DNA of 64,000 nucleotides from Acidimicrobiales bacterium (GCA_035630295.1 DASQKY010000030.1:1426-65425); one strand, 5' to 3'. Shown: positions 26,931 through 62,970, counted from the stretch's first letter. Numbers and translations are program-made. Notes: generated by a model from the sequence alone, not told the origin.

Positions 26931-28547
<1,617 letters not shown>

Positions 28548-39274: not shown

Positions 39275-39653
39275 GGGGCTGACCGGTTTCGACGTCGAGT
39301 CCGTGACCCCATCGTGCGACCGGAGTTGCTCAGACTCCTTAAACGGGGCACCCAAGTAAACGCCGATGGCGATTACGCTCTCGCCGCCTGACATCTAGTC
39401 GGGTGAAGAGAGACACAGCGACCAGCAATGGCACGCGGGGCCTGACCACGACAGCCCGGCAACAGAAGTCGTGGTGGACGGCGGGAGAGACCGCTGGCCG
39501 CAGGGAAAGACCGCTGACCGCTCGGAAAGACGAGCCGGTGCCGCAAGGCAGCCCACCCGGGGGCGCACCAGCCGCAGAGGTGCAGTCACGGGGATGGTCG
39601 TAGCGCGATCGGTGATCGCTTGGCGGACGGGGGTTCGATTCCCCCCAGCTCCA
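39275..39653 (+). ncRNA. ssrA: tmRNA; tag ORF 39362-39391 encodes (A)ADGDYALAA
   Basis: 5' GGGGCTG pairs with 3' CAGCTCC including the G3.U70 Ala determinant. GGGGG-TTCGATT-CCCCC T arm. AAGTAAAC-GCC resume context and YALAA* tag end. CCA not encoded (A then CGA). Confidence 0.95.
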
Positions 39654-39723
39654 CGACGGTGTCCTTACTCCAAACCCCGCTCAGAGAACGGGGACGGCAC
39701 TCGGGTGACCGCCCCCGGATGGG

Positions 39724-47684: not shown

Positions 47685-48055
47685 GCGCCGCCGGGCAGGT
47701 GCTGGCCCTGGCCGGGGCCCTCCTCACCCTGGTGGCCGCGGTCGGCGTCCTGCGGTTCCCCGACGTGCTGGCCCGCATGCACGCCCTGACCAAGGCGTCC
47801 ACCCTCGGCTTCGTGCTCCTGGCCGTGGGGGCCGCTCTGTCGCTGCGCACCGCCAACGACATCACCTCGGCCCTGCTGGCCGCCGGGCTCCAGCTCCTCA
47901 CCCTGCCGGTGGCGGCCAACCTGATCAGCCGCTCCACCTACCTGGCCGAGGGCATCCCCCAGCGGGTCGACTCCATCGACGAGCTGGACCAGGCCCGGCG
48001 GGCCCGGGCCGCCGAGGCCGCCGACGATCAGCCCCCGCCGGCCGGCGACGGGTAG
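47681..48055 (+). CDS. mrpG: Mrp antiporter subunit G
   Basis: G..RFPD...RMHA.TK..TLG, LT.PV.A..I.R. Confidence 0.92.
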   Translation: MSAAGQVLALAGALLTLVAAVGVLRFPDVLARMHALTKASTLGFVLLAVGAALSLRTANDITSALLAAGLQLLTLPVAANLISRSTYLAEGIPQRVDSIDELDQARRARAAEAADDQPPPAGDG

Positions 48056-49737
48056 TCCGGGAACTGGTCCTGCGGCGGCAGCTCGGTGAACAGGGTGGGC
48101 GAGCCCTCGGGGTCGTGGGGGGCCGGGGGGCCGCTGCCCATGCGGCCGGGCAGCGACCGCAGGCCACCGTTGGCGTAGCGCCACATCCCCGGGGCGTCGG
48201 ACTTGTCCTGCTCGTCGGGCCCGGTGGCCTCGGCGTCCCACCAGATCTCGGCCACGTCGTCGACCCCCAGGTAGTCGGGGTTGGGGAAGAAGCCGTGGTT
48301 GCCGAAGGAGATCTGCGGGGTGGTGGGCCCGCCGCCGCTGGGCGGGTAGCTGAACAGGCCGCCCTCGAAGGTCTGGGGGGAGAGGTTGGGGCCGGCCATG
48401 TGGATGCCCAGCATCAGGAGCTGGACGTAGGGCCAGAGGATCCCGCTGGTCAGGCGGGCCTCGGGCGGCTCGCCGAAGTACCACTCGTGGAGCCGCCACT
48501 GCTCCTGCTGCTCGATGGGCCGCCGGCCGGCCAGGTTGGAGACCCCGAAGGCGTGGGTCCACTGGGCCGGGTCGTACAGGCGGCCCAGCGCGGTGGTGTC
48601 GGTCAGCACCGTGCCGGCGATGACCCACTCGGGGAAGTAGTTCTCCCGGGTGGCGGCCTGGGTCAGGTAGGTGGGCATGATCGGGTCGCCCAGGAAGATC
48701 ACGGTGGTGACCCCGGCCGCCTTCATCTTGGCGATGATGGTGGCGGCCCGCTCCGGCAGGCGGGGCAGGTCCAGCAGGTACGTCTCCCCCACCGCAGCCT
48801 CGTAGCCCCGCAGCCGACCCCTGGCGTTGACCTCCTCGGCCACGTCGCTGAACACCGGGGGGTCCTGCTCGAAGTTGATGGTGCCGAACACCCGCTCGCG
48901 CTCCCGGAGCTCCGGCCCCGCGAACTCGGCGGTGCGGCCCAGGAGGCGCCGGACGATGAAGTCGCCGAAGTTGCGCAGGAACTGCTCGGGGGTCGGGAGC
49001 TGGCCCCACATGTGGGGGGCGCTGTCCTGGTACACCGAGTCCGGCACCGACAGCCCGCAGGCGATGCAGATGACCCCGTTGCGGGCCAGCTCCTCGGCGA
49101 AGGCACTGGTCAGAGCCGGGCCGCCGATGACGGCGAAGGGCCCGATCTCCTCCACCACCCGCACCGCGTCGGCCACCGCGGCGGTGACATCGGCGGCCGG
49201 CCCCGAGCCCACCAGCACCTCCACGTCCAGGGTGCGGCCATAGGTCTCGTAGACGTCGGTCAGCATCTCGATGTAGGCCAGGCGGGTGCGCTGCTGGACG
49301 TCCTCGTCGTCGAGCAGCCCCTGGAGGGCGGCGGTGATGTCGTTGCCCGGCGGGGGCTGGTACACGACGATCTTGATGGCCTCGGCGGTGACACCCAGCG
49401 AGGTGGCGCCGCCGTTGTCGCCGGTGGGGACGGGCACGCACGGCGGGGCGTAGACGCTGGGCAACCTGACCCGGCCGGTGATCAGGTCGCACCCGTCGCC
49501 CCAGTCGTGGTCGCCGGCCTCGTTGCGCTCCTCGGCGTCCCGGAAGTACACGGGCAGGTCGGGGTTGTCGGTGGGGTCGGTGGCCCGGGCCCCGCCCCCG
49601 GGCCCGGCGGCCCGGGCCTCCTCGGGGGGACGGCCCTTCACGGTGGCCACCACGGCCACCAGCAGCAGGGCCACCACCACGGCCAGGGGGCCGAAGCGGC
49701 GCAGGGGGCCGGGGCGGGGCGGGGGGGACGTGGCCAT
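48028..49737 (-). CDS. Large membrane-anchored ABC substrate-binding protein (Liv/type I periplasmic-binding fold)
   Basis: N-terminal TM helix, DNGGATSLGVT...IKI, ETYGR, FAVIG, MKAAGVTTV, P.W, M.G..LS. Last gene of the ABC operon. Start is estimated. Confidence 0.7.
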   Translation of the reverse strand: MATSPPPRPGPLRRFGPLAVVVALLLVAVVATVKGRPPEEARAAGPGGGARATDPTDNPDLPVYFRDAEERNEAGDHDWGDGCDLITGRVRLPSVYAPPCVPVPTGDNGGATSLGVTAEAIKIVVYQPPPGNDITAALQGLLDDEDVQQRTRLAYIEMLTDVYETYGRTLDVEVLVGSGPAADVTAAVADAVRVVEEIGPFAVIGGPALTSAFAEELARNGVICIACGLSVPDSVYQDSAPHMWGQLPTPEQFLRNFGDFIVRRLLGRTAEFAGPELRERERVFGTINFEQDPPVFSDVAEEVNARGRLRGYEAAVGETYLLDLPRLPERAATIIAKMKAAGVTTVIFLGDPIMPTYLTQAATRENYFPEWVIAGTVLTDTTALGRLYDPAQWTHAFGVSNLAGRRPIEQQEQWRLHEWYFGEPPEARLTSGILWPYVQLLMLGIHMAGPNLSPQTFEGGLFSYPPSGGGPTTPQISFGNHGFFPNPDYLGVDDVAEIWWDAEATGPDEQDKSDAPGMWRYANGGLRSLPGRMGSGPPAPHDPEGSPTLFTELPPQDQFPDYPSPAGGG

Positions 49738-49780
49738 CACGGGCCTCCGGGTCGGGGTGGGCGGGGAAGGGACGGCGTGC

Positions 49781-52700
49781 TCACGTCGCCCCCGCGGGGT
49801 CGGGGGCGGCACCGGAGCGGGCCGCCGCGGTGCCGGTGCCGAGGTACGAGGCCACCACCTCGGGGTGGGCCAGCACCTCGGCGGGGGGACCGGAGGTGAC
49901 GACCCGACCCTGGTCGAGGGCCAGGAGCCGGTCCGACACCGAGCGGATGAGACCCATGTCGTGCTCCACCACCACCAGGCTGGCCCCCAGGGTGGAACGG
50001 ATGCGCAGCAGGAGCGGCCCCAGGGCCTCGGCCTCGCGCTGGGCGATGCCGGAGGAGGGCTCGTCCAGCAGCACCACCGAGGGCCGGTGGGCCAGGACGC
50101 AGGCCAGGTCCACGATGCGCCGGGACCCGGTGGACAGCTCGCCCACGAACTTGCTGCGAAAGGCGCCCAGGCCCAGCAGCTCGATCAGCTCGTCCACCTC
50201 GGCGGTGACCCGGGCCTCGCTGGCCACCAGGGCGGGCAGCCGGAGGGCGGCGTTGAGCGGGTCGCGCACCGCCACCCACCGCTCCCGGGCCACGGCCACC
50301 GCCTCCTCCACGGTCAGGGACGGGAACAACCGGGAGTCCTGGAAGCTGCGGCCCAGGCCGGCCCGGGCCCGCGCCGCGGCCGACCGGCCGGAGACGTCGA
50401 CGCCATCGAGGGCCACCCGGCCCTCGGCCGCCGGGGTGATCCCGCTGATCAGGTCGAACAGCGTGGTCTTGCCGGCCCCGTTGGGGCCGATCACCCCCAG
50501 CACCTCGCCGGGGGCCACGGCCAGGGACACGTCGTCGACGGCCACCACCCCCCCGAAGCGCACGCCCAGGCCGTGGGCCTCCAGAGCCGGGGTGGCGGTG
50601 CCCCGGCCGCTCCCCTCGGGCCGGGCGGCCACCACCGGGGCGGTCCCGTCGGGGGCCCGGTCCTCCAGGTCCGGGCCGTCCGGGGCCGGGCCGTCGCCGT
50701 TCGCCCCGCCGTCGGCCGCGGCGAGGCCCCGGGTGGCGCCCTCCAGGAAGACCGAGCGCAGGACGTCGGGCCGGTCCAGCAGCTCGGCGGTGGGGCCCTC
50801 GAAGCGGACCTCGCCCTTCTCCAGGAAGTAGGCGCGATCGGCGATGGCCAGGGCCACGTTCACCGACTGCTCGACCACCAGGATGGTGGTGCCCTCGTCC
50901 CGCAGGGCCCGCACCACCTCCAGGAGCTGGTCGACCACCACCGGGGCCAGGCCCAGCGACAGCTCGTCGATGGCCAGGAGCTGGGGCCGGGTCAGGAAGG
51001 CCATGGACAGGGCCAGCATCTGCTGCTGCCCGCCCGACAGGTCGGCGGCCGGGTCGTCGCGCCGGTCCCGGAGCACCGGGAACATCTCGTGCACCCGGGC
51101 CAGCCGTTCCTGCACCTCGGCCCGCTGGTCGCGGGCCGACCACGCCGCCACCCGCAGGTTCTCGGCCACGGTGAGGCCCGGGAACGTGCCCCTGCCCCCC
51201 GGCACCTGGCCGATGCCCAGCACCGCGATCTCCTCGGGCGGGGCGTGGGTGATGTCCCGCCCGTCGAAGATGACCGCTCCCCGGCTGGCCGGCACCACCC
51301 CGGAGATGGCGTTGAGCAGGGTCGACTTGCCGGCCCCGTTGGTGCCCAGCAGGGCCACCACCTCCCCCTCGGTGACCTCCAGGTCGACGCCGAAGAGGAT
51401 GCGCACGTCGCCGTAGCGGACGTCCAGGTCCCGGACCAGGAGCAGCTTCTGGTGCCCCGCCCGGCGCTCCCGCAGCAGCTCGGCCCGGGCTGCGGCCCCG
51501 GCCCACACCTGGTGGACGTCGCCGTCGATGACCCGGCCCACTCGGGCGATGAGCAGGCCCCCGACCAGGAAGGTGGGGCCCAGCACGGCCATGCCCCAGC
51601 GGAAGCCGTGGACCTCCCCGATCCAGCCGATGACCGGGAGCACCACCAGGCCGGGCAGGACGAACAGGGCCCCGATGGAGAACCCCACCGACCGGGCCCG
51701 GGGCGGGATGGCCAGTGACAGGCTGGACAGCACGCCGGGGCCCACGATGACCAGGCAGGCGGCCAGCAGGGCGTTGGCCACCACCGCCAGGGCCACCGTG
51801 GGCGCCCCGGCGAAGGCCAGGGCCAGGGCGGCGGACAGCCAGGCCGCCATCGAGATGAGGCGGAACACGTGGCGCGGCCCCCGGGCCAGCATCCGCACCC
51901 CGAGGCGGGCCCCGACCAGCAGCCCGGCCAGCTCGGCCCCGTACACCGGCACCGCCACCCAGGACCGCTCGATCTCGTCCAGCCCGAAGACCTGCTCGTA
52001 GTGGATCGACGACACGGCCAGCAGGCCGGCGATGGCCGCGGCCAGGAAGGGCAGGGCCACGAAGATGCGGCGCAGGCTCTCGATGGTCCACACCATGCGG
52101 TAGGCCTCGGCGAACGACGGCGGCGGCTCGTCGGTGCCCACCAGGTCGGCATCGGCCCCCATGGCCGCCCGCTCGAAGTGGCCCCGGCCGGGGTCTCGCA
52201 GGCGGAGCCCGACGACCACCAGGACCACGGTGGGCAGCGCGAACACGAAGAACGGCGTGCGCCACCCACCGACCTGGGCCAGCAGGGCGGCCCCGACGGT
52301 GCCGACGATGGCCCCCACCGCGTTGGCCGAGCGGTGGAGGGAGTAGATGCGGGGCCGGACCGACGGCTCGTAGGTGTCGGCCAGCAGGGAGTTGTGGGTC
52401 GGGAAGATGGCGGCGTTGCCGACGGCCGAGCTGCACCGCACCACGACCAGGAACCACGCCGCGAAGGCCACCCCGGTGCCCACCGAGAACAGGGCCCAGG
52501 CCCCGGCGCCCAGCAGGGCGATGCGGTAGCGGTCGCTGCGGTCGGCCCAGTTGGCGATGGGCACGGTGAGCAGCAGGGCCGCGGCGGTGGCGACCGCCAC
52601 CAGGCCCAGGATGCCGGAGTTGTCCAACCCGAAGTGGTCCCGGATGTCGGGCAGCAGCACCGCGAAGGCGCTGCGGTCCAACTCGTCGGCGACGTTCAAC

Positions 52701-52825
52701 CCGCACAGCACCACCAGGGGCAGCAGCGGCGCCCCGCCGGTGAGGCGGGCCCGCAGCCACCCGGCCGCGCCGGCCTCGGCGTCGGCGTCGGCTTCGTCGA
52801 CCGTCACCACGTCCGCCTCGGTCAC
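49781..52825 (-). CDS. Fusion protein: MFS transporter + LivF-like ATPase + LivG-like ATPase
   Basis: MFS motifs (DELDRSAF, LAD..., SLLAD.Y....R), then GTNGAGKST/LSGGQQQMLA/IDELSLGLAP/VEQ, then GPNGAGKTT/LSTGSRRIV/LLDEPSSG/VEH. One 1014-aa frame; GTGA overlap with the permease. Confidence 0.88.
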   Translation of the reverse strand: MTEADVVTVDEADADAEAGAAGWLRARLTGGAPLLPLVVLCGLNVADELDRSAFAVLLPDIRDHFGLDNSGILGLVAVATAAALLLTVPIANWADRSDRYRIALLGAGAWALFSVGTGVAFAAWFLVVVRCSSAVGNAAIFPTHNSLLADTYEPSVRPRIYSLHRSANAVGAIVGTVGAALLAQVGGWRTPFFVFALPTVVLVVVGLRLRDPGRGHFERAAMGADADLVGTDEPPPSFAEAYRMVWTIESLRRIFVALPFLAAAIAGLLAVSSIHYEQVFGLDEIERSWVAVPVYGAELAGLLVGARLGVRMLARGPRHVFRLISMAAWLSAALALAFAGAPTVALAVVANALLAACLVIVGPGVLSSLSLAIPPRARSVGFSIGALFVLPGLVVLPVIGWIGEVHGFRWGMAVLGPTFLVGGLLIARVGRVIDGDVHQVWAGAAARAELLRERRAGHQKLLLVRDLDVRYGDVRILFGVDLEVTEGEVVALLGTNGAGKSTLLNAISGVVPASRGAVIFDGRDITHAPPEEIAVLGIGQVPGGRGTFPGLTVAENLRVAAWSARDQRAEVQERLARVHEMFPVLRDRRDDPAADLSGGQQQMLALSMAFLTRPQLLAIDELSLGLAPVVVDQLLEVVRALRDEGTTILVVEQSVNVALAIADRAYFLEKGEVRFEGPTAELLDRPDVLRSVFLEGATRGLAAADGGANGDGPAPDGPDLEDRAPDGTAPVVAARPEGSGRGTATPALEAHGLGVRFGGVVAVDDVSLAVAPGEVLGVIGPNGAGKTTLFDLISGITPAAEGRVALDGVDVSGRSAAARARAGLGRSFQDSRLFPSLTVEEAVAVARERWVAVRDPLNAALRLPALVASEARVTAEVDELIELLGLGAFRSKFVGELSTGSRRIVDLACVLAHRPSVVLLDEPSSGIAQREAEALGPLLLRIRSTLGASLVVVEHDMGLIRSVSDRLLALDQGRVVTSGPPAEVLAHPEVVASYLGTGTAAARSGAAPDPAGAT

Positions 52826-55029
52826 GGGGTCGACGCCTCCTCGGCCACCGGGGCCGGGACGTGCTCGGCCGCGGCCACCAGCGGGCCCACGTCGTCGGTG
52901 TCGGTGCGCACGTCGGCCACCAGGCTGGGCACCACCAACCCCCGCCGATCGGCCAGGCGGCGCAGCAGGGCGTCCCGGGCCCGGTACACCAGCTCTCCCA
53001 GGCCGCCGGGCAGCACCAGCAGCACCAGCAGCACGCCCAGGGCCGAGGGCAGCAGCTCCCAGTCACCGGAGAGCACCCAGCGCCCGCCGTTGAGGAACAG
53101 GGCGCCGATGACGGCCCCGGTCAACGAGCCCAGGCCCCCCACCACCGCGGCGGTGAAGACGTTGAAGCTGACGGCCGGGCCGAAGGGCTGCTCGGTGTAG
53201 CCCAGGGTGACCTGGGCCAGGAGGCACCCGGCCACCGCGGCCAGGAAGCCGGAGAGGGCGAAGGCCGAGAGCTTGGCCCGGACCACGTCGATGCCGTAGG
53301 AGCGGGCCGCGGCCTCGTTGTCCCGGAGGGCCAGCAGCACCCGGCCGGTGCGGCTGGCCCGCACCCCCCGCACCGCCACCAGGCCCAGCACGGCCACCGT
53401 GGCGCAGGTCCAGAACATGGCCCGCTGGCTGGACAGGTCGATCACCGCGAACAGGCGGGGCCGCACCAGCCTCTCCCGGGGCAGCCACGACACCTGGGAC
53501 CGGTTCAGGAGGTACTGGCTGGAGGCCACCGCGAAGGCCAGGGTGGTGACGGCCAGGAACGGGCCCCGGAGGCGCAGGGCGGGCAGGCCGACCACCACCG
53601 CCACCACCGCACCGGCCGCACCGGCCAGGAGCAGGGCCAGCGACAGGTCGAGCCGCCACGGCCCGGTGGCCTGCACCCCGACCAGGGCCCCCACCGCGGC
53701 GAAGGACATCTGGCCCAACGACACCTGGCCCGCCCAGCCGGTGAGCACCACCACCGAGGCCGCCACCAGCACGAAGCAGGCCACGGTGGCCGCCTCCAAC
53801 TGCTGGCTGGGCCGCAGGGCCAGGGGCAGGGCCACCACGGCGGCGCCCAGCAGGGTCAGGGCCCCGGCTCGGGCCCACCGCACCTCGGGCCGGCGCCGGA
53901 GCTCGGCCGGGATGGGCCGCACCTCCTCGGAGGCCTGCCACGACGTGGTCGTGTCGGTGGCCAGCCGGCTGGTGCCCAGCCGCCGCACCAGCATCACCAC
54001 CACGATGACCCCGCCCAGCACCGGGGCCACCAGCTGGTCGGGGTGGCTGTGCAGCACGCCCTGCTCCAGGATGCCCACGGCCACCGCGGCGGCCCCCACC
54101 GCCACCATGTCGGTGAGGTTGCCCAGCACCAGGGCGGCCAGGGCGGCCAGCAGGGCCCCGAAGCTGAGGGTGGCGGCCACCGGCAGGCCCACCACCCCGG
54201 CCCGCAGCAGCACGCCCAGGAAGCTCAGGCCGGTGGCCAGGCACCAGACCACGGTCTGCAGGCGACGGACCGGGATGCCCAGCAGGGCGGCCCGGTCGCT
54301 GCGCTCCGAGGCGGCCCGGATGGCCACCCCCACGTCGGTGAAGCGCAGGAAGGCGGCCAGGGCCCCGACCACCAGCGGCACCAGGACCAGGGCCAGCAGG
54401 TGGTCGCCCTCCAGGCGGGGCGGGCCCTCGGAGAGCACCACGCGCCAGGGGACGTCGATGTCCTGCTGGACCAGGTCGCGGCCCCACAGGCGGGGCAGGA
54501 CCAGGGAGACGAACGAGAGGAGCTGGGACAGGCCGATGGTGGCCACGGTCAGCACCAGGCGGGGGGCCCGCTGGAAGCGGCGGATGACGGCCATCTCCAC
54601 CACCACCCCCAGGGCCAGGGCCACGGCCAGGCCGATGGGCACCGACACCAGCCAGGGCAGGGCGCTGAAGTTGACCAGGCCCACCACCAGCACGGTGGGA
54701 GCGGTCCCCAGCTCAGCCTGGGCGAAGTTGAGGACCCGGTTGGCCCGGTACACCAGGGCCATGCCCAGGGCCACCAGGGCCGACATCAGCCCCAGGACCA
54801 GCCCGAAGGCCCAGGCCGAGGCGGGCAGCGGGAAGAGCACCACCTGGAGCCACAGGACCCCGGCCACCGGGGCCGCGACGCGGGTCACGGCCGGGCGGCG
54901 GGCCGTCTCGCCGGCCACGGCCACGGCCAGCACCAGCAGCCAGGCCCCGCCGGAGAGCGGCTGGTCCAGGGCTCGGGGCAGGGTCAGGAGGGCGGCGGCC
55001 GCGACGGCCGTGAAGATCGTTGCATGCAT
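52822..55029 (-). CDS. Fused LivH+LivM branched-chain-amino-acid-type ABC permease
   Basis: LVYRANRV.NFAQ, T.VG..IRA.....D.A.LLGI, LTGWAGQVSLGQ, PALRLRG..LAV.TLAF, R.GR.L.A.RDNE..A...G, GGLGS..GA. Confidence 0.9.
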   Translation of the reverse strand: MHATIFTAVAAAALLTLPRALDQPLSGGAWLLVLAVAVAGETARRPAVTRVAAPVAGVLWLQVVLFPLPASAWAFGLVLGLMSALVALGMALVYRANRVLNFAQAELGTAPTVLVVGLVNFSALPWLVSVPIGLAVALALGVVVEMAVIRRFQRAPRLVLTVATIGLSQLLSFVSLVLPRLWGRDLVQQDIDVPWRVVLSEGPPRLEGDHLLALVLVPLVVGALAAFLRFTDVGVAIRAASERSDRAALLGIPVRRLQTVVWCLATGLSFLGVLLRAGVVGLPVAATLSFGALLAALAALVLGNLTDMVAVGAAAVAVGILEQGVLHSHPDQLVAPVLGGVIVVVMLVRRLGTSRLATDTTTSWQASEEVRPIPAELRRRPEVRWARAGALTLLGAAVVALPLALRPSQQLEAATVACFVLVAASVVVLTGWAGQVSLGQMSFAAVGALVGVQATGPWRLDLSLALLLAGAAGAVVAVVVGLPALRLRGPFLAVTTLAFAVASSQYLLNRSQVSWLPRERLVRPRLFAVIDLSSQRAMFWTCATVAVLGLVAVRGVRASRTGRVLLALRDNEAAARSYGIDVVRAKLSAFALSGFLAAVAGCLLAQVTLGYTEQPFGPAVSFNVFTAAVVGGLGSLTGAVIGALFLNGGRWVLSGDWELLPSALGVLLVLLVLPGGLGELVYRARDALLRRLADRRGLVVPSLVADVRTDTDDVGPLVAAAEHVPAPVAEEASTP

Positions 55030-55186
55030 ACTGCAAGGTGTTGGCCGGGCACTGTAGGACATCACCGCCGGCTGTGCCGGACGGCACGCCGAGGGGGCCT
55101 GGACCGTCTACCTACCGGTCGGTAGGCTGGGCGCCGGTCCTCCGCGACCGGCCTCCCCCACCCCCCGACGGCGCCCCCCGGGCGCG

Positions 55187-56365
55187 ATGGAGAGACCGCA
55201 GGTGAGCAGCGCACACGCCCTCGAGCGCGAGCCCGACGAACGGGTCAACTGGGTCGCCTCGATCCCCATGTTCGCCGTCCACGGGCTGTGCCTCCTGGCC
55301 CTCGTCACCGGGATCACCTGGCAGTCGCTCGTCCTGTGCGCCGTCCTCTACGCCGGGCGCATGTGGTTCATCACCGCCGGCTTCCACCGCTACTTCTCGC
55401 ACCGCAGCTACAAGACCAGCCGGGCCTTCCAGTTCGTCCTGGCCTTCGGCGGTGGCAGCGCGGCCCAGAAGGGCGCCCTGTGGTGGGCCAGCCACCACCG
55501 CGACCACCACCGCTTCAGCGACACCGAGCGTGACGTGCACTCGCCCCTCAAGGGCTTCTGGTGGAGCCACATGGGGTGGATCCTGTGCGACCGCTACAAG
55601 GGCTGGGACCCGGACTCCATCAAGGACTTCGCCAAGTTCCCGGAGCTGCGCTTCCTCACCAAGCACGACTGGATCCCGCCTTGGACCGTGGCCGTGGCCT
55701 GCTACTTCATCGCCGGCTGGTCGGGCGTGGTGGTGGGGTTCGTGTGGTCCACGGTGCTGTTGTGGCACGGCACCTTCACCGTCAACTCCCTGGCCCACGT
55801 GATGGGCCGCCGCCGCTACGCCACCACCGACACCAGCCGCAACTCGGCCCTCATCGCCCTGTGGACCGGTGGCGAGGGCTGGCACAACAACCACCACCAC
55901 CACCAGGCCGCGGCCCGCAACGGCTTCTTCTGGTGGGAGTACGACCCCACGTACTACGGCCTGAAGGCGCTGTCCTGGCTCCGCGTCGTGCGCGGCCTGC
56001 GGACCCCGCCGGCCCGGGCCCTCCAGAGCTCCCGGGTGCGCGACGGCTCGTTCGACATGGGCATGTTCAAGGCCCACTGGGGCAAGGCCACCGCCGCCCT
56101 GACCGCCCACGTGCGCCGGTCCGGGGCCGCCGCCCCCGAGGTCGAGGCCGAGCTGGCCCGGGCTCGCGAGCTGGCCACCGCGGCCACCGCCCCCGACCCG
56201 GTCGAGGAGGAGCTGGGGGCCGCGGCCACCCGGCGGGAGTCGATCGAGGAGAAGATGCACGCCAGCCGGGACGCCCTGGAGGACAGCGTGCGCTCGGCCC
56301 TGCGGTCGGCCGAGGAGCTGGCCCAGCTCTCCCGCCGCCAGCGGGCCGTCGCCCCGTCCGACTGA
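55187..56365 (+). CDS. Delta-9-type membrane fatty-acid desaturase with C-terminal coiled-coil extension
   Basis: His boxes HRYFSH, HHRDHH, HNNHH; TVNSLAH..G; GEGWH. Confidence 0.92.
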   Translation: MERPQVSSAHALEREPDERVNWVASIPMFAVHGLCLLALVTGITWQSLVLCAVLYAGRMWFITAGFHRYFSHRSYKTSRAFQFVLAFGGGSAAQKGALWWASHHRDHHRFSDTERDVHSPLKGFWWSHMGWILCDRYKGWDPDSIKDFAKFPELRFLTKHDWIPPWTVAVACYFIAGWSGVVVGFVWSTVLLWHGTFTVNSLAHVMGRRRYATTDTSRNSALIALWTGGEGWHNNHHHHQAAARNGFFWWEYDPTYYGLKALSWLRVVRGLRTPPARALQSSRVRDGSFDMGMFKAHWGKATAALTAHVRRSGAAAPEVEAELARARELATAATAPDPVEEELGAAATRRESIEEKMHASRDALEDSVRSALRSAEELAQLSRRQRAVAPSD

Positions 56366-56861: not shown

Positions 56862-57028
56862 GCTGGGGGGCTCCTGGGGATGGAGGGGCGAGAGCGGACG
56901 CCGACCGGGCCGGCATGCAGTCGACCATTGTGCCACCCCAGCGGCCCCGGACCTCACCCGACCCGGACCGGCCGGGGGGCGGTGGCGCCGGTTCGGGCCC
57001 CGACCGGTGCCCCGGTAGCGTGCCATCG

Positions 57029-58216
57029 ATGACCGACGCCGCCCTCCTCCGGGCCGACAGTCTGCTCCGGGCCGGCGACGCGGCCGGCGCCCGGGCCGCC
57101 GTCGAAGCCCTGCTCGCCAGCGACCGGGCCCCCGCCGCGGCCCGGGCCCGGGCGCTGCTGCTGCGAGCCCGGGCCCAGCACCACCTGGGCGACATGGCCG
57201 CCACCCGGGCCGACGTCGACGCCGCGGTGGCCGCCGCCGAGGAGGCCGGCGACCCGGCGGCGCAGGCCTCGGCCCTGGCCTCGCGGGCCGAGCTCCACCT
57301 CCACGCCGACGACCCGGCCGCCGCGGTGGCCGACCTCGACCGGGCCGTGGCCCTCCTGCCCGAGCCGGGCTCGACCGGCGCCGCCCTGCTGCACGTCCGG
57401 GCCACGGCCCGGGCCCGGCTCGACGACCGGGCCGGGGCCCTGGCCGACCTCGACGCCGTGCTCACCCTCCTCGACCCGGCCGAGGGCACCGAACGGGCCC
57501 ACGCCCACCAGAGCCGGGCCGGGCTGCGCCTCGTGTGCGGCGACCTGGCCGGGGCGGGCCGCGACCTCGACGCCGCCCAGGACCTCCACACGCTCCCCCA
57601 CCCGGGGTGCGAGGGGGCCCGGTACCACCTCGGCGGCCGGCTGCGCCTGCTGCTGGGCGACCTCGACGGGGCGGCGGCCGACCTCGTCCACGCCCACCGT
57701 CGAGCCCAGGAGGCCGGCGACCGGGCCGGGCAGGCGGCCGTGGCCCGCACCACGGCCGAGGTCGGCCTGGCCCGCAACGACATGGTGACGGCCCGGCGCC
57801 AGGTCGACGCGGCGGTGGCCCTCCTCGACCACCTGGGTGACGGCGACGGGGCCGCCGACGCCCGCCGGACCCGAGCCCAGGTCCGCCTGCGCACCGGCGA
57901 CCTGGCCGGCGCGGCCGCCGACCTGGACGCCGTGCTGGGCCGGGTGGCGGGCCGGGACGGCGCGCGCCGGGCTGCGGCCCTGCAGACCCGGGCCGAGGTG
58001 CACGTGCGGGGCGGCCACCTGCTGGAGGCGGCGGCCGACGTCGAGGCCGCGCTGGCCCACCACCGGGCCGCCGGCGACCGGGTCGAGGAGGTCCGGGACC
58101 TCCGCATCCGGGCCTCGCTGCGCGCCATCCGGGGCGACGAGGCCGGCGCGGCCGAGGATCGCCGCCGGGCCGACACCGCCGAGGCCGAGCTGCGGGCCCC
58201 CTTCGCCCCGGGCTAG
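57029..58216 (+). CDS. Tetratricopeptide-like repeat protein (about 9 repeats, no other domain seen)
   Basis: Recurring RA.....GD..(G/A)A.AD(L/V)D.A(V/L) units at roughly 38-40 aa spacing. Confidence 0.75.
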   Translation: MTDAALLRADSLLRAGDAAGARAAVEALLASDRAPAAARARALLLRARAQHHLGDMAATRADVDAAVAAAEEAGDPAAQASALASRAELHLHADDPAAAVADLDRAVALLPEPGSTGAALLHVRATARARLDDRAGALADLDAVLTLLDPAEGTERAHAHQSRAGLRLVCGDLAGAGRDLDAAQDLHTLPHPGCEGARYHLGGRLRLLLGDLDGAAADLVHAHRRAQEAGDRAGQAAVARTTAEVGLARNDMVTARRQVDAAVALLDHLGDGDGAADARRTRAQVRLRTGDLAGAAADLDAVLGRVAGRDGARRAAALQTRAEVHVRGGHLLEAAADVEAALAHHRAAGDRVEEVRDLRIRASLRAIRGDEAGAAEDRRRADTAEAELRAPFAPG

Positions 58217-58222
58217 GTCCAG

Positions 58223-58645
58223 CTAAGCCGCGGGCTCGGCGGTGGGCAGGTGGCGCCCGTCGGGCAGGGGTTCCCACCCCACCACCACCCGATCGCCCAC
58301 GGCCACGGCCCACGGGTCCGTGGGCCCGTGGACCTGGAGCAGCATGCGCACCCCCTCGTCCAGGGCCACCAGGGCCACGGCGTAGGGGGCCCGGCCGGCC
58401 AGGCCCGGGTGGGCGGCCTGGGGCTGCACCGACACGGCGTGGACCTCGCCGGCGCCCGGCGAGGGACGCCACTCCAGATCCTCGCCCAGGCAACGGGGGC
58501 AGAAGCCCCGCGGGTACCAGTGGGGGGCCTCGCAGGCTCGGCACCAGGGCAGGACCAGGCGCCGGTCGCGGCTGGCGGCCCAGAACGGGGCGCCGGCCGG
58601 CGACTCGGGAGGCAGCGGCCGCTCCGGGCCCGGTTCGGCGCTCAC
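58223..58645 (-). CDS. DUF35 Zn-ribbon/OB-fold protein
   Basis: GTGA overlap with the thiolase. PFW.A.....L....C..C....WYPR..CP.C, G.G.V, PY.VALV.L.EG.RM. Confidence 0.9.
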   Translation of the reverse strand: MSAEPGPERPLPPESPAGAPFWAASRDRRLVLPWCRACEAPHWYPRGFCPRCLGEDLEWRPSPGAGEVHAVSVQPQAAHPGLAGRAPYAVALVALDEGVRMLLQVHGPTDPWAVAVGDRVVVGWEPLPDGRHLPTAEPAA

Positions 58646-59829
58646 AGGGTGGCCTCCGTGCCCAGCACCACGGTCGAGAGGGCCGACAGCACGCCCCCGC
58701 TGCCGTGGGCCAGGGCCACCTCGGCCCCGGGCACCTGGCGGTCGCCGGCCTCGCCCCGGAGCTGCCGCACCGCCTCGACCAACAGGAAGATGCCGTACTG
58801 GCCGGGGTGGGTGTAGGCCAGGCCGCCGCCGTTGGTGTTGGCCGGCAGGGCGCCGCCGGGCCGCAGCGGGCCGTCGGCCACGAACGGCCCGCCCTCGCCC
58901 TTGGGGCAGAAGCCCAGGTCCTCCAGGGCCAGGAGCACGGTGATGGTGAAGCTGTCGTACAGCTCGACCACGTCCACGTCCTCGGGCCCCAGGCCGGCCA
59001 CCGCGAAGGCGTCCCGGCCCGAGGTCACGCCGCCGGTCTCGGTCAGGTCCGGCATCTGGCTGATCAGGGCGTGGGTGTGGCAGGTGCCGGCCCCCAGCAC
59101 CGCCACCGGCGGGCGGCGCAGGTGGCGGGCCCGGGCCGTGCTGGTGAGGACCACGGCCCCGGCCCCGTCGGTGACCAGGCAGCAGTCCAGGGTGTGCAGG
59201 GGCGAGGCGGCCACCGGCGAGGCCAGCACGTCGTCCATGGTGACGGGCTGCTGCAGCCGGGCCCGGGGGTTGCCGGTGGCCCACTCCCGGGTCTGCACCG
59301 CGATCTGGGCCAGCTGCTCGGAGCTGGTGCCGTAGAGGTGCATGTGGCGGCTGGCGGCCAGGGCGTAGGCCCCCATGGGCATGCGCAGGCCGTGGGGCAC
59401 CTCCCACTCGCCGCTGGGGGTGGCGCCTCCGGCCGCGGCCCGGCTGCGCCAGCCGCCCCGGCCCGCCTTGTGGTCGGAGCGGGGCGTGGCCGCGTAGGCC
59501 ACCACCACCACCTCGCACAGGCCGAGGGCGATGGCCGCCGCCGCGTGCTGCACGTGGATCTCGAAGCTGGACCCCCCGGCCTGGGTGGAGTCGGTCCAGC
59601 GGGGGCTGATGCCCAGCCGCTCGGCCAGCTCCAGGCTGGCCGCCCACCCCACCGCGTTGTTGGTGCAGATGCCGTCCACGTCGGCCACGGCGAGGCCGGC
59701 GTCGTCCAGGGCCTCCCGGATCATCCGGGCCTCCAGCTGGGCCACGGTGCCGGGGAGCATGCCGGTCGGGTCGGCGGCGTCGGCCACCCCCACCACGGCG
59801 GCGGCGCCCCGAAGCGGGTGGGCGGGCAC
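58642..59829 (-). CDS. Thiolase-like protein (SCP-x/Ltp2-type; N-terminal catalytic Cys replaced by GGSS)
   Basis: AAVVGV, GGSSF, CCLVTDGAGAVV, ELYDSFT, GFC.KGEG, NTNGGGL.YTHPG, HG.GG. Confidence 0.88.
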   Translation of the reverse strand: MPAHPLRGAAAVVGVADAADPTGMLPGTVAQLEARMIREALDDAGLAVADVDGICTNNAVGWAASLELAERLGISPRWTDSTQAGGSSFEIHVQHAAAAIALGLCEVVVVAYAATPRSDHKAGRGGWRSRAAAGGATPSGEWEVPHGLRMPMGAYALAASRHMHLYGTSSEQLAQIAVQTREWATGNPRARLQQPVTMDDVLASPVAASPLHTLDCCLVTDGAGAVVLTSTARARHLRRPPVAVLGAGTCHTHALISQMPDLTETGGVTSGRDAFAVAGLGPEDVDVVELYDSFTITVLLALEDLGFCPKGEGGPFVADGPLRPGGALPANTNGGGLAYTHPGQYGIFLLVEAVRQLRGEAGDRQVPGAEVALAHGSGGVLSALSTVVLGTEATL

Positions 59830-61235: not shown

Positions 61236-62132
61236 TCAGACGTCGAGGAAGCGGCCCACGGCCAGGCCGGCCCCGAGGGCACCGATGATCACGCCGGCCA
61301 CGCCGACCTTGACCGATGCCCACAGCACGGTGGCCATGGTGAAGTCGAAGGCGGTGAAGATCTGGAAGTAGTCGCCGTCGGACAGGGCGCCGAAGAGCAC
61401 GGTGTTGGCCGCCATCATGAACAGCAGGGCCAGGAGGCCGCCGAGCACGGCCTGGACCAGCCCCTCCAGGATGAACGGCACCCGGATGAACCAGTTGGTG
61501 GCCCCCACCAGCTTCATCACCTCGATCTCCCGCCGGCGGGCGAACATGGCCGTGCGGAGGGTATTGTAGATCAGCAGGATGGCGATGAGGCCCAGCACCA
61601 GCGACGAGGCGAAGACGCCCCGGATGAGCTTCTCGCTCAGGTCCTGGATGGCCTTGATGGCCTCGGTGGCGCTCTCCACCTCCCGCACCCCGGGCTCGCC
61701 CTCGTAGACGTCCCGCAGCGAGTTCACCGACTGGACGTCCGGGTTGGTGGGCGTGATCCGGAACGAGGGGGGGACGTCCGCCTCCCGCAGGAGCTGCTGG
61801 GTGGTGGGCTGGTCCTCGAACAGCTCGCGGGCCTCCTCGAAGGCCTGCTGCTGGTTCACGTAGTGGAAGTCCTGGACCTCGGGGTTGTCGTCCAGGGAGG
61901 CGGCCAGCGCCTCGCGCTGGGCGGTGGAGATGTCCGGGTCGAGGAAGACGATGAGCTCGATGTCGCCCCGGAAGTTGCCGGCCAGCTTGTCGACCCCCTC
62001 CTGGACCAGGAGGAACACCCCGGCCAGGGTGAGCGACACGGCGACCGTGATGACGGAGGCCACCGTGAGCGTGGGGTTGCGCCCCAGGTTCTTCGTGGTC
62101 TCGCGGGTGACGTAGCTGACGTTGAGGGCCAT
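61236..62132 (-). CDS. ftsX: Cell-division permease FtsX
   Basis: RN..LT.AS, .VFLD, SF.I, I.NT.R.A.FARR.EI..MKLVGAT.WFIR.PF.LEG. Confidence 0.93.
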   Translation of the reverse strand: MALNVSYVTRETTKNLGRNPTLTVASVITVAVSLTLAGVFLLVQEGVDKLAGNFRGDIELIVFLDPDISTAQREALAASLDDNPEVQDFHYVNQQQAFEEARELFEDQPTTQQLLREADVPPSFRITPTNPDVQSVNSLRDVYEGEPGVREVESATEAIKAIQDLSEKLIRGVFASSLVLGLIAILLIYNTLRTAMFARRREIEVMKLVGATNWFIRVPFILEGLVQAVLGGLLALLFMMAANTVLFGALSDGDYFQIFTAFDFTMATVLWASVKVGVAGVIIGALGAGLAVGRFLDV

Positions 62133-62144
62133 GGGTGCCGGGTC

Positions 62145-62822
<678 letters not shown>

Positions 62823-62970
62823 GCGGTGGAGGCAACCTCGAGGAGGGGGTGGCGGGCGGGAGGGCCCCCGCAGCGGCGGGAGCTCGCCCCTCGACCGACG
62901 GGAAACGTTACCAACGCGTCACGAGCCCGGACGCGCATGGTCGCGTGACCCTTGCCCCACCGCGCCCGGT

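Follow-up and report, generated by a model that had tools for sequence, protein, structure and literature searches.

The stretch of DNA considered here (the window; 64,000 nucleotides, DASQKY010000030.1:1426-65425 of assembly GCA_035630295.1) comes from a soil actinobacterium of the class Acidimicrobiia and has a G+C content of about 75%. Within this 64-kb window, to which all coordinates refer, three co-directional genes on the minus strand encode an ATP-binding cassette (ABC) importer: a fused LivH-LivM permease, a polypeptide in which a major facilitator superfamily (MFS) domain is followed by LivF- and LivG-type nucleotide-binding domains (NBDs), and a substrate-binding protein (SBP) (Table 1). 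ABC transporters, which are driven by ATP, and MFS carriers, which are driven by gradients, are the two largest transporter superfamilies and are treated as mechanistically separate. The corresponding open reading frames (52822-55065, 49781-52825 and 48028-49812) have a G+C content at third codon positions of 0.94-0.97, as is typical of coding sequence. A preliminary description of the locus had reported an operon of three genes encoding proteins of 735, 1014 and 569 amino acids (aa), the first two genes overlapping by GTGA, with neither a stop codon nor a frameshift between the MFS domain and the NBDs. All of this is borne out: the genes lie on the minus strand with these sizes, the 1014-codon frame is uninterrupted, and the GTGA at 52822-52825 combines the stop codon of the permease gene with the start codon of the fusion gene. 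Scans of the locus found no riboswitch or leader in the 5' region, no promoter-like site and no meaningful terminator. Only DNA metagenome runs match the sequence, and no RNA runs containing it were found.

Table 1. Coordinates of the importer genes, the domains of the fusion protein and neighbouring features in the window.
Feature	Position	Strand	Remarks
Fused LivH-LivM permease gene	52822..55029	-	about 735 aa from ATG 55029; longest open reading frame from GTG 55065
MFS-LivF-LivG fusion gene	49781..52825	-	1014 aa, single unbroken frame
Spinster-like MFS domain	51530..52738	-	residues ~30-432, 12 transmembrane helices
Helical linker between transmembrane helix 12 and NBD1	51461..51529	-	residues 433-455, conserved
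NBD1, LivF/UrtE-type	50741..51448	-	residues ~460-695
Linker between the NBDs	50591..50740	-	residues ~696-745; disordered, poorly conserved
NBD2, LivG/UrtD-type	49826..50590	-	residues ~746-1000, including the BCA_ABC_TP_C tail
Membrane-anchored substrate-binding protein gene	48028..49737	-	569 aa
FA_desaturase-family gene, divergent	55187-56365	+	E 2e-15
TPR protein	56915-58216	+	
Thiolase	58642-59829	-	
FtsE/FtsX pair	61236-62918	-	ABC ATPase and FtsX with extracellular domain
Mrp-type multisubunit Na+/H+ antiporter operon, convergent	42061-~47900	+	
tmRNA gene	39275-39656	+	tag peptide ADGDYALAA
tRNA-Leu gene	28471-28547	-	

The fusion of MFS and ABC domains is widely conserved. Over 120 homologues are full-length, at about 1000 aa; they carry both PF07690 and PF00005, are 60-87% identical to the window protein and come from Iamia, Aquihabitans, Rhabdothermincola, Microthrixaceae and Ilumatobacteraceae, complete genomes included. 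In all 82 related loci examined, the LivH-LivM permease gene is followed by MFS-NBD1-NBD2 and then by the binding protein gene, and the three domains of the fusion protein share one open frame in at least 68 of the 82, most of the others being cut by contig ends. A scan of one genome per species, using a narrower MFS alignment and the signature THxSLL[AST]D[YT]Y, found the MFS signature in 507 species genomes, the best 80 of which are all from Acidimicrobiales. Members of the group also occur in soil, compost and permafrost metagenomes. In one metagenome-assembled genome, Iamia sp. SMAG_U4342, two paralogous whole clusters are present (L007 and L059), with MFS domains 72% and 52% identical to that of the window, and duplicated clusters or tandem binding protein genes were noted among L007/L059, L029, L042 and L073.

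Mis-assembly or a sequencing frameshift joining two separate genes would be the simplest explanation of so unusual a protein, and the MFS domain and NBDs do fall in separate frames in six loci from long-read assemblies. In four of these (L029, L047, L052 and L065) the separation is likely due to frameshifts. In the other two (L085 and L087) the binding protein genes are frameshifted as well, marking the assemblies as error-prone, and the apparently split MFS and NBD genes there are therefore discounted. Against this explanation, a contig assembled independently from the soil metagenome of origin matches 51313-53553 with zero differences and bridges both the permease/fusion junction and the MFS-NBD1 junction. 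Together with the single frame in at least 68 independent genomes, among them complete isolates, this contig rules out an assembly artefact, the probability of which is practically negligible. The fusion is thus real, in agreement with the preliminary description, and a search of domain architectures confirms that it is conserved in relatives.

The N-terminal part of the fusion protein is a complete MFS domain, as had been proposed. Pfam MFS_1 (PF07690) matches residues 46-383 (E 1e-32), and 12 transmembrane (TM) helices are found both by hydropathy and in the helix list of an AlphaFold2 (AF2) model. The domain is 53-88% identical among orthologues, as against 70-94% for the NBDs of the same proteins, and its most conserved part is the N-terminal six-helix half, with the helices of the cavity. 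The 12 helices, this level of identity and the near-invariance of key residues described below rule out a degenerate MFS domain, and at the level of sequence they support an intact domain under purifying selection. When a profile of the MFS clade was compared with a library of solved structures only, HnSpns (6e8j) was the best match (E 5e-30, 108 bits) and human SPNS1 the next (E 6e-22, 81 bits), with DgoT (64 bits) and NorA (61 bits), both at E 1e-16, and EfpA and SPNS2 far behind. A search with the single MFS sequence ranks these relatives in the same way.

Mapping onto the residues described for HnSpns (PMC9440201), together with a census of 278 near-complete clade domains, fused and stand-alone, revealed both strong similarity to the Spinster family (HnSpns, SPNS1 and SPNS2; TC 2.A.1.49) and one loss. 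The TM1 pair Asp41/Arg42 of HnSpns corresponds to D50/R51, the arginine of the TM4 RxxxG motif (Arg122) to R130, the charge relay residue Asp142 to D150, and Asp87/Arg91 of motif A to D95/R99, and all six residues are near-invariant. Motif A, represented in the fusion protein by D95/R96/R99, has the invariant form PIAxWADRxxR between TM2 and TM3, and the loop after TM6 with the sequence (E/D)PxRG..ER is likewise shared with Spinster proteins. Unlike in these proteins, the position of Glu129, the proton master switch of HnSpns, is occupied by N137 in the window protein and is never Glu in any of the 278 domains. Instead, it is Gln in most Acidimicrobiales orthologues, Lys or Arg in more remote members, and Asn or Leu elsewhere, the Asn being the state of the window protein. 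In HnSpns, the substitution E129Q traps the inward-closed state (PMC9440201).

Further differences from Spinster proteins are two additional invariant acidic residues in TM1, D47/E48, and the attachment to ABC ATPase domains. The salt bridge between Asp60 (TM2) and Arg289 (TM7) of HnSpns is not evidently kept: the aligned residues are N69 (N, D or L in the family) and approximately E277/Q278, in a C-domain where the alignment is weak. As Glu129, one defining feature of Spns proteins, is missing, the domain is named Spinster-like rather than assigned to Spns. By its predicted features, the module is intact and Spinster-like, with proton coupling of a non-canonical kind.

The joint of the fusion always lies between the C-terminus of the MFS domain and the LivF NBD. 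The linker here is a helix in the AF2 model, with a column conservation of 0.69-0.72 and with D436, V440, W441 and R454 invariant. The model of the fusion protein has a predicted local distance difference test score (pLDDT) of 86 and a whole-chain predicted template modelling score (pTM) of 0.72, the latter hinting at a defined arrangement of MFS domain and NBD. The linker between the two NBDs, on the other hand, has pLDDT values below 50 at residues 694-742 and a column identity of 0.33. At 50370-50606, which covers this linker and the start of NBD2, word depth in contigs of the source sample rises to about 2600x, compared with about 35-60x elsewhere, probably reflecting conserved ABC sequence common to many other genomes in the sample.

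Searching with the MFS domain alone against 1.84 billion representatives returned 249 proteins at E<1e-30, and the architectures among the top 150 were MFS-NBD-NBD (with MFS identity down to 32%), MFS-NBD of about 700 aa, permease-MFS and stand-alone MFS. Four arrangements of the genes were found. The window type consists of LivHM, MFS-LivF-LivG and SBP. In a second (L088, 4134-11898), the order is SBP (495 aa), a protein X (450 aa), MFS-LivF (694 aa) and LivH-LivM-LivG (938 aa), and this SBP is a remote homologue of the binding protein (hhalign 97%). A third (L083) comprises LivF-LivG, a protein X and MFS, and in a fourth (L011, 2-5095) LivH-LivM-MFS-LivF-LivG forms one open frame of at least 1698 aa. 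Neither the 450-aa neighbour in L088 nor the 315-aa neighbour in L083 has a family match. As these four arrangements tie the MFS clade to LivF, LivG, LivH and LivM, they support a physical MFS-ABC complex, with the MFS domain a true subunit of the ABC system. The L088 layout could be read as two half-transporters, MFS-LivF and LivHM-LivG.

Joins between permease and MFS are not confined to the five-domain protein. In some relatives (P0173, P0179 and P0255) the permease runs into the MFS domain without a stop, and eight representative clusters contain such joins. The second arrangement, L088, is flanked by genes for an AMP-binding ligase, a P450, a CoA-transferase, an amidohydrolase_2 protein and SDR proteins, surroundings that have the look of a gene cluster for the catabolism of some hydrophobic compound. 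Some stand-alone members of the clade are located far from any Liv genes. Several proteins consisting of a stand-alone MFS domain without an NBD (P0143, P0392, P0409, P0415 and others) are labelled 'branched-chain amino acid transport system ATP-binding protein' in one source, which looks like annotation transfer from fusion proteins.

The remaining domains of the importer are those of a Liv system. The permease contains two BPD_transp_2 stretches (PF02653, E 6e-48), of which the N-terminal half matches UrtB/LivH and the C-terminal half UrtC/LivM (NCBIfam), and in relatives the orthologues of 707-732 aa are encoded immediately upstream of the fusion gene. NBD1 has the Walker A motif GTNGAGKST, the signature LSGGQQQ and the Walker B motif IDE, and NBD2 has the Walker A motif GPNGAGKTT, the signature LSTGS, LLDEP and the H-loop VEHD. 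The Walker A and B motifs, signatures and Q-loops of both NBDs are invariant across the family alignment. Both NBDs had been described as keeping Walker A/B and H-loops. The Walker motifs are indeed present in both, but the H-loop histidine is found only in NBD2, the equivalent position of NBD1 being Gln (VEQSVN), which is the usual state of LivF-type NBDs. Similarly, the two signatures read as previously given, but the term degenerate does not suit LSTGS, whose invariance across the family makes it a family trait rather than a sign of decay. Structurally, NBD1 resembles 1ji0 of Thermotoga maritima (Foldseek TMt 0.90). Foldseek matches to the full AF2 model of the fusion protein are driven by the NBDs, with nothing on the MFS domain, and the top matches of the NBD part are DppD and OppD of Mycobacterium tuberculosis (PDB 8wdb and 8j5q).

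In almost every related locus, the binding protein gene follows the fusion gene. Its true start is the ATG at 49737, preceded by GGAGG, which gives the protein of 569 aa. The protein itself has no Pfam or NCBIfam match. It is 73% identical to the orthologue of Iamia majanohamensis and 51% identical to one from Microthrixaceae, and this latter orthologue exceeds the cut-off for Peripla_BP_6 (PF13458, 37.7 bits against 31.7). The AF2 model (pLDDT 86.6, pTM 0.85) shows a TM helix at the N-terminus and a core with the type-I periplasmic binding protein (PBP) or LivJ fold, and it matches LivJ/LivK, binders of aromatic acids and GABA-B flytrap folds (E 1e-13). Such matches are generic, and no ligand is assigned on this basis. 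The protein also has a low-complexity tether, as well as N- and C-terminal extensions of about 100 aa each that LivJ does not have. Two pairs of Cys residues are invariant in the family, C83/C100 in the N-terminal extension and the CxxC pair C224/C227 in the core, and are candidates for disulfide bonds or for a metal or redox site.

Beyond the three genes, conservation of any flanking gene is limited to at most 14 of the 83 loci, and the flanks carry housekeeping genes, such as those for Suf, Lon, ArsC and LeuRS. The divergent FA_desaturase-family gene had been taken as a pointer to a lipid-like substrate. It adjoins the cluster in only five of the 83 loci, all from closely related Iamiaceae, so that it does not serve as such a pointer, and as a functional partner it is rejected in favour of local synteny. 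The lipid-like or amphipathic substrate itself nevertheless gains independent support, as the nearest solved relatives of the MFS domain are Spinster lipid transporters. On the other side of the importer, the proteins of the Mrp-type operon are MnhA-like (with MbhD/MbhE/MnhB domains), MnhD-like and MnhE-like. The other neighbouring features are given in Table 1.

In comparison to known systems, the locus most closely resembles the LIV-I/HAAT importers (LivJ/K-LivHMGF, TC 3.A.1.4, including Urt and Bra), with which it shares LivH/LivM permeases of the BPD_transp_2 type, LivF/LivG NBDs, the BCA_ABC_TP_C tail, a type-I Peripla_BP_6 binding protein and the organisation of the operon. Unlike these importers, it has fused permeases, NBDs fused as LivF-LivG, a 12-TM MFS domain N-terminal to LivF, and a TM-anchored binding protein of about 570 aa that is too divergent for a Pfam match of its own. 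Assignment as a urea transporter (UrtABCDE) was rejected on NCBIfam scores: UrtB/UrtC reach 79 bits against cut-offs of 250-296, UrtD reaches 302.7 against 304.1, and the UrtE cut-off is exceeded only because two NBDs sum their scores. The scores of the LivH/M equivalogs are also far below their cut-offs. Like the fusion protein, DppD and OppD of M. tuberculosis combine two NBDs in one chain, although these belong to a Type I peptide importer of the BPD_transp_1 family and have no membrane domain.

Two other systems join a secondary carrier to a cytoplasmic partner. The carrier ArsB functions alone on the membrane potential, or as an ATP-driven pump once ArsA is bound, and the ArsAB arsenite pump is therefore similar in concept, with a secondary-carrier fold and a cytoplasmic ATPase. 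However, the families are unrelated, and ArsAB is a non-covalent complex without a binding protein or second permease. LplT-Aas fusions combine an MFS lysophospholipid transporter with an acyltransferase/acyl-ACP synthetase. Here too a lipid-handling MFS protein is covalently joined to a cytoplasmic partner that uses nucleotides, and the partner acts on the same substrate as its MFS, but it is an enzyme rather than an ABC ATPase and the MFS family differs.

The system is a lineage-specific, binding-protein-dependent variant of LIV/HAAT-type importers in Acidimicrobiia, with the Spinster-like MFS domain as its fifth module. It is quite possible, although far from certain, that this domain serves as an accessory module coupled to the NBDs and that an amphipathic anion is imported. 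In this mechanism, the anchored binding protein would capture an amphipathic organic anion, such as a fatty or dicarboxylic acid, an aromatic acid or a lysolipid-like compound, and not necessarily branched-chain amino acids. The ligand would then be passed to LivHM, with import powered by the tandem NBDs. As an obligatory subunit, the MFS domain would lie next to LivHM in the bilayer and, lacking autonomous proton coupling, would shift its conformation in step with the NBD cycle by way of the linker helix. Rather than being an independent proton-driven pump, it could offer the same substrate, which would partition into the membrane, an accessory path or gate, either handing it off or flipping it to the inner leaflet or releasing any excess. 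The proposed class of substrate combines two preferences: the cavities of Spinster proteins suit negatively charged lipophilic molecules (PMC9440201), and the ligands of binding proteins in the COG0683/LivK family are often fatty, dicarboxylic or aromatic acids, not Leu, Ile or Val (PMC3223731).

A coupled primary and secondary transport machine had been suggested in the preliminary description, working by import with efflux of a product, by lipid flipping or with the MFS domain as a sensor that gates the ATPase. Of this suggestion, the association of MFS and ABC components is upheld by the four arrangements, and any functional coupling is putative. The loss of the Glu switch argues against a canonical proton-driven secondary transporter, so the picture of a primary plus a secondary machine may be wrong. 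Several observations also weigh against an accessory module importing an amphipathic anion. Stand-alone members of the clade are without the Glu as well, indicating that its absence does not depend on fusion, and protonation in this clade may occur at a different site, such as D47/E48. The occurrence of paralogous clusters with different binding proteins in one genome suggests that the role of the MFS domain is generic rather than substrate-specific. In addition, the flanking genes give no metabolic clue, and the binding protein has no sequence match in PDB, its fold matches being only 10-16% identical.

Alternatively, the MFS domain could be a regulatory pseudo-transporter, a non-transporting scaffold and ligand sensor (transceptor) that gates the ATPase via NBD1. 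With a substrate or membrane lipid bound in its cavity, it might then hold NBD1 or let it go, a form of trans-inhibition analogous to that by the C-terminal regulatory domains of MetN, ModC or MalK. Loss of the Glu switch throughout the clade would fit, since the equivalent E129Q locks HnSpns in one state, as would the short conserved helical tether to NBD1 and the several paralogous systems per genome, which point to a generic role. The cytoplasmic-loop residues G215, E218, R219 and R376 are, moreover, under tighter constraint when the domain is fused than when it stands alone, a comparison biased by the phylogenetically narrower fused set. However, the near-invariance of the substrate-binding Arg, the TM1 Asp, the TM4 Arg and motif A goes beyond the needs of a static anchor, motif A is required for alternating access, and the stand-alone members of the clade presumably transport something, leaving the regulatory role somewhat unlikely. 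It is unlikely, too, that the MFS domain is an independent secondary carrier fused for co-expression only, mediating, for example, low-affinity uptake or product or overflow export of the same metabolite without mechanical coupling to the ABC cycle. The intact MFS domain and its stand-alone relatives would be expected in that case, and these lineages tolerate fusions readily, as seen in the long linker between the NBDs and in the fusion of permeases, of NBDs and even of all five domains. Nevertheless, the MFS C-terminus is always joined to the LivF NBD, the connection being a conserved helix and not a flexible stretch, the association has been kept through four rearrangements and down to about 32% MFS identity, and the canonical proton switch is absent.

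In a further scheme, the NBDs, or NBD1 on its own, would dock on the cytoplasmic face of the MFS domain and drive its alternating access directly, turning a secondary carrier into a primary pump as ArsA does with ArsB, with LivHM acting in parallel or as a partner. Loss of the proton switch and conservation of the tether are compatible with such an ATP-driven MFS, the half-transporters suggested by L088 resemble it, and the pTM of the model suggests a confident placement of the NBDs relative to the MFS domain. Yet coupling helices of the ABC type are known in no MFS protein, LivHM is always present and needs both NBDs, and the Glu is missing from stand-alone members of the clade as well, making this scheme very improbable. 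The proposal that alternating access of the Spinster-like MFS domain is driven or gated directly by the NBD cycle, such that one ATPase pair powers two unrelated transport folds, LivHM and an MFS, is decidedly unlikely. If true, the MFS would be primary-active or gated by ATP, the whole would be the first hybrid engine of ABC and MFS known from nature, and an amphipathic substrate would possibly be moved through both the water phase and the bilayer by one machine.

No description of an MFS-ABC fusion was found in full-text literature searches, in papers on the mechanism of Spinster proteins or in a preprint on mycobacterial Spns, and in public databases the fusion proteins are present under generic automatic names. 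Automatic annotation as 'MFS transporter' or 'branched-chain amino acid ATP-binding protein' mislabels what is a core transporter of Acidimicrobiia, and the erroneous 'ATP-binding protein' label is passed on to MFS relatives that stand alone. In hundreds of species, an intact Spinster-type MFS domain is held covalently and stably within an ABC importer, having passed through at least four rearrangements without ever being lost. This family thus offers a natural test of whether the MFS fold can be coupled to, be gated by, or regulate an ATPase, and its substitution of the proton master switch makes it a bacterial handle on the mechanism of the Spinster family.

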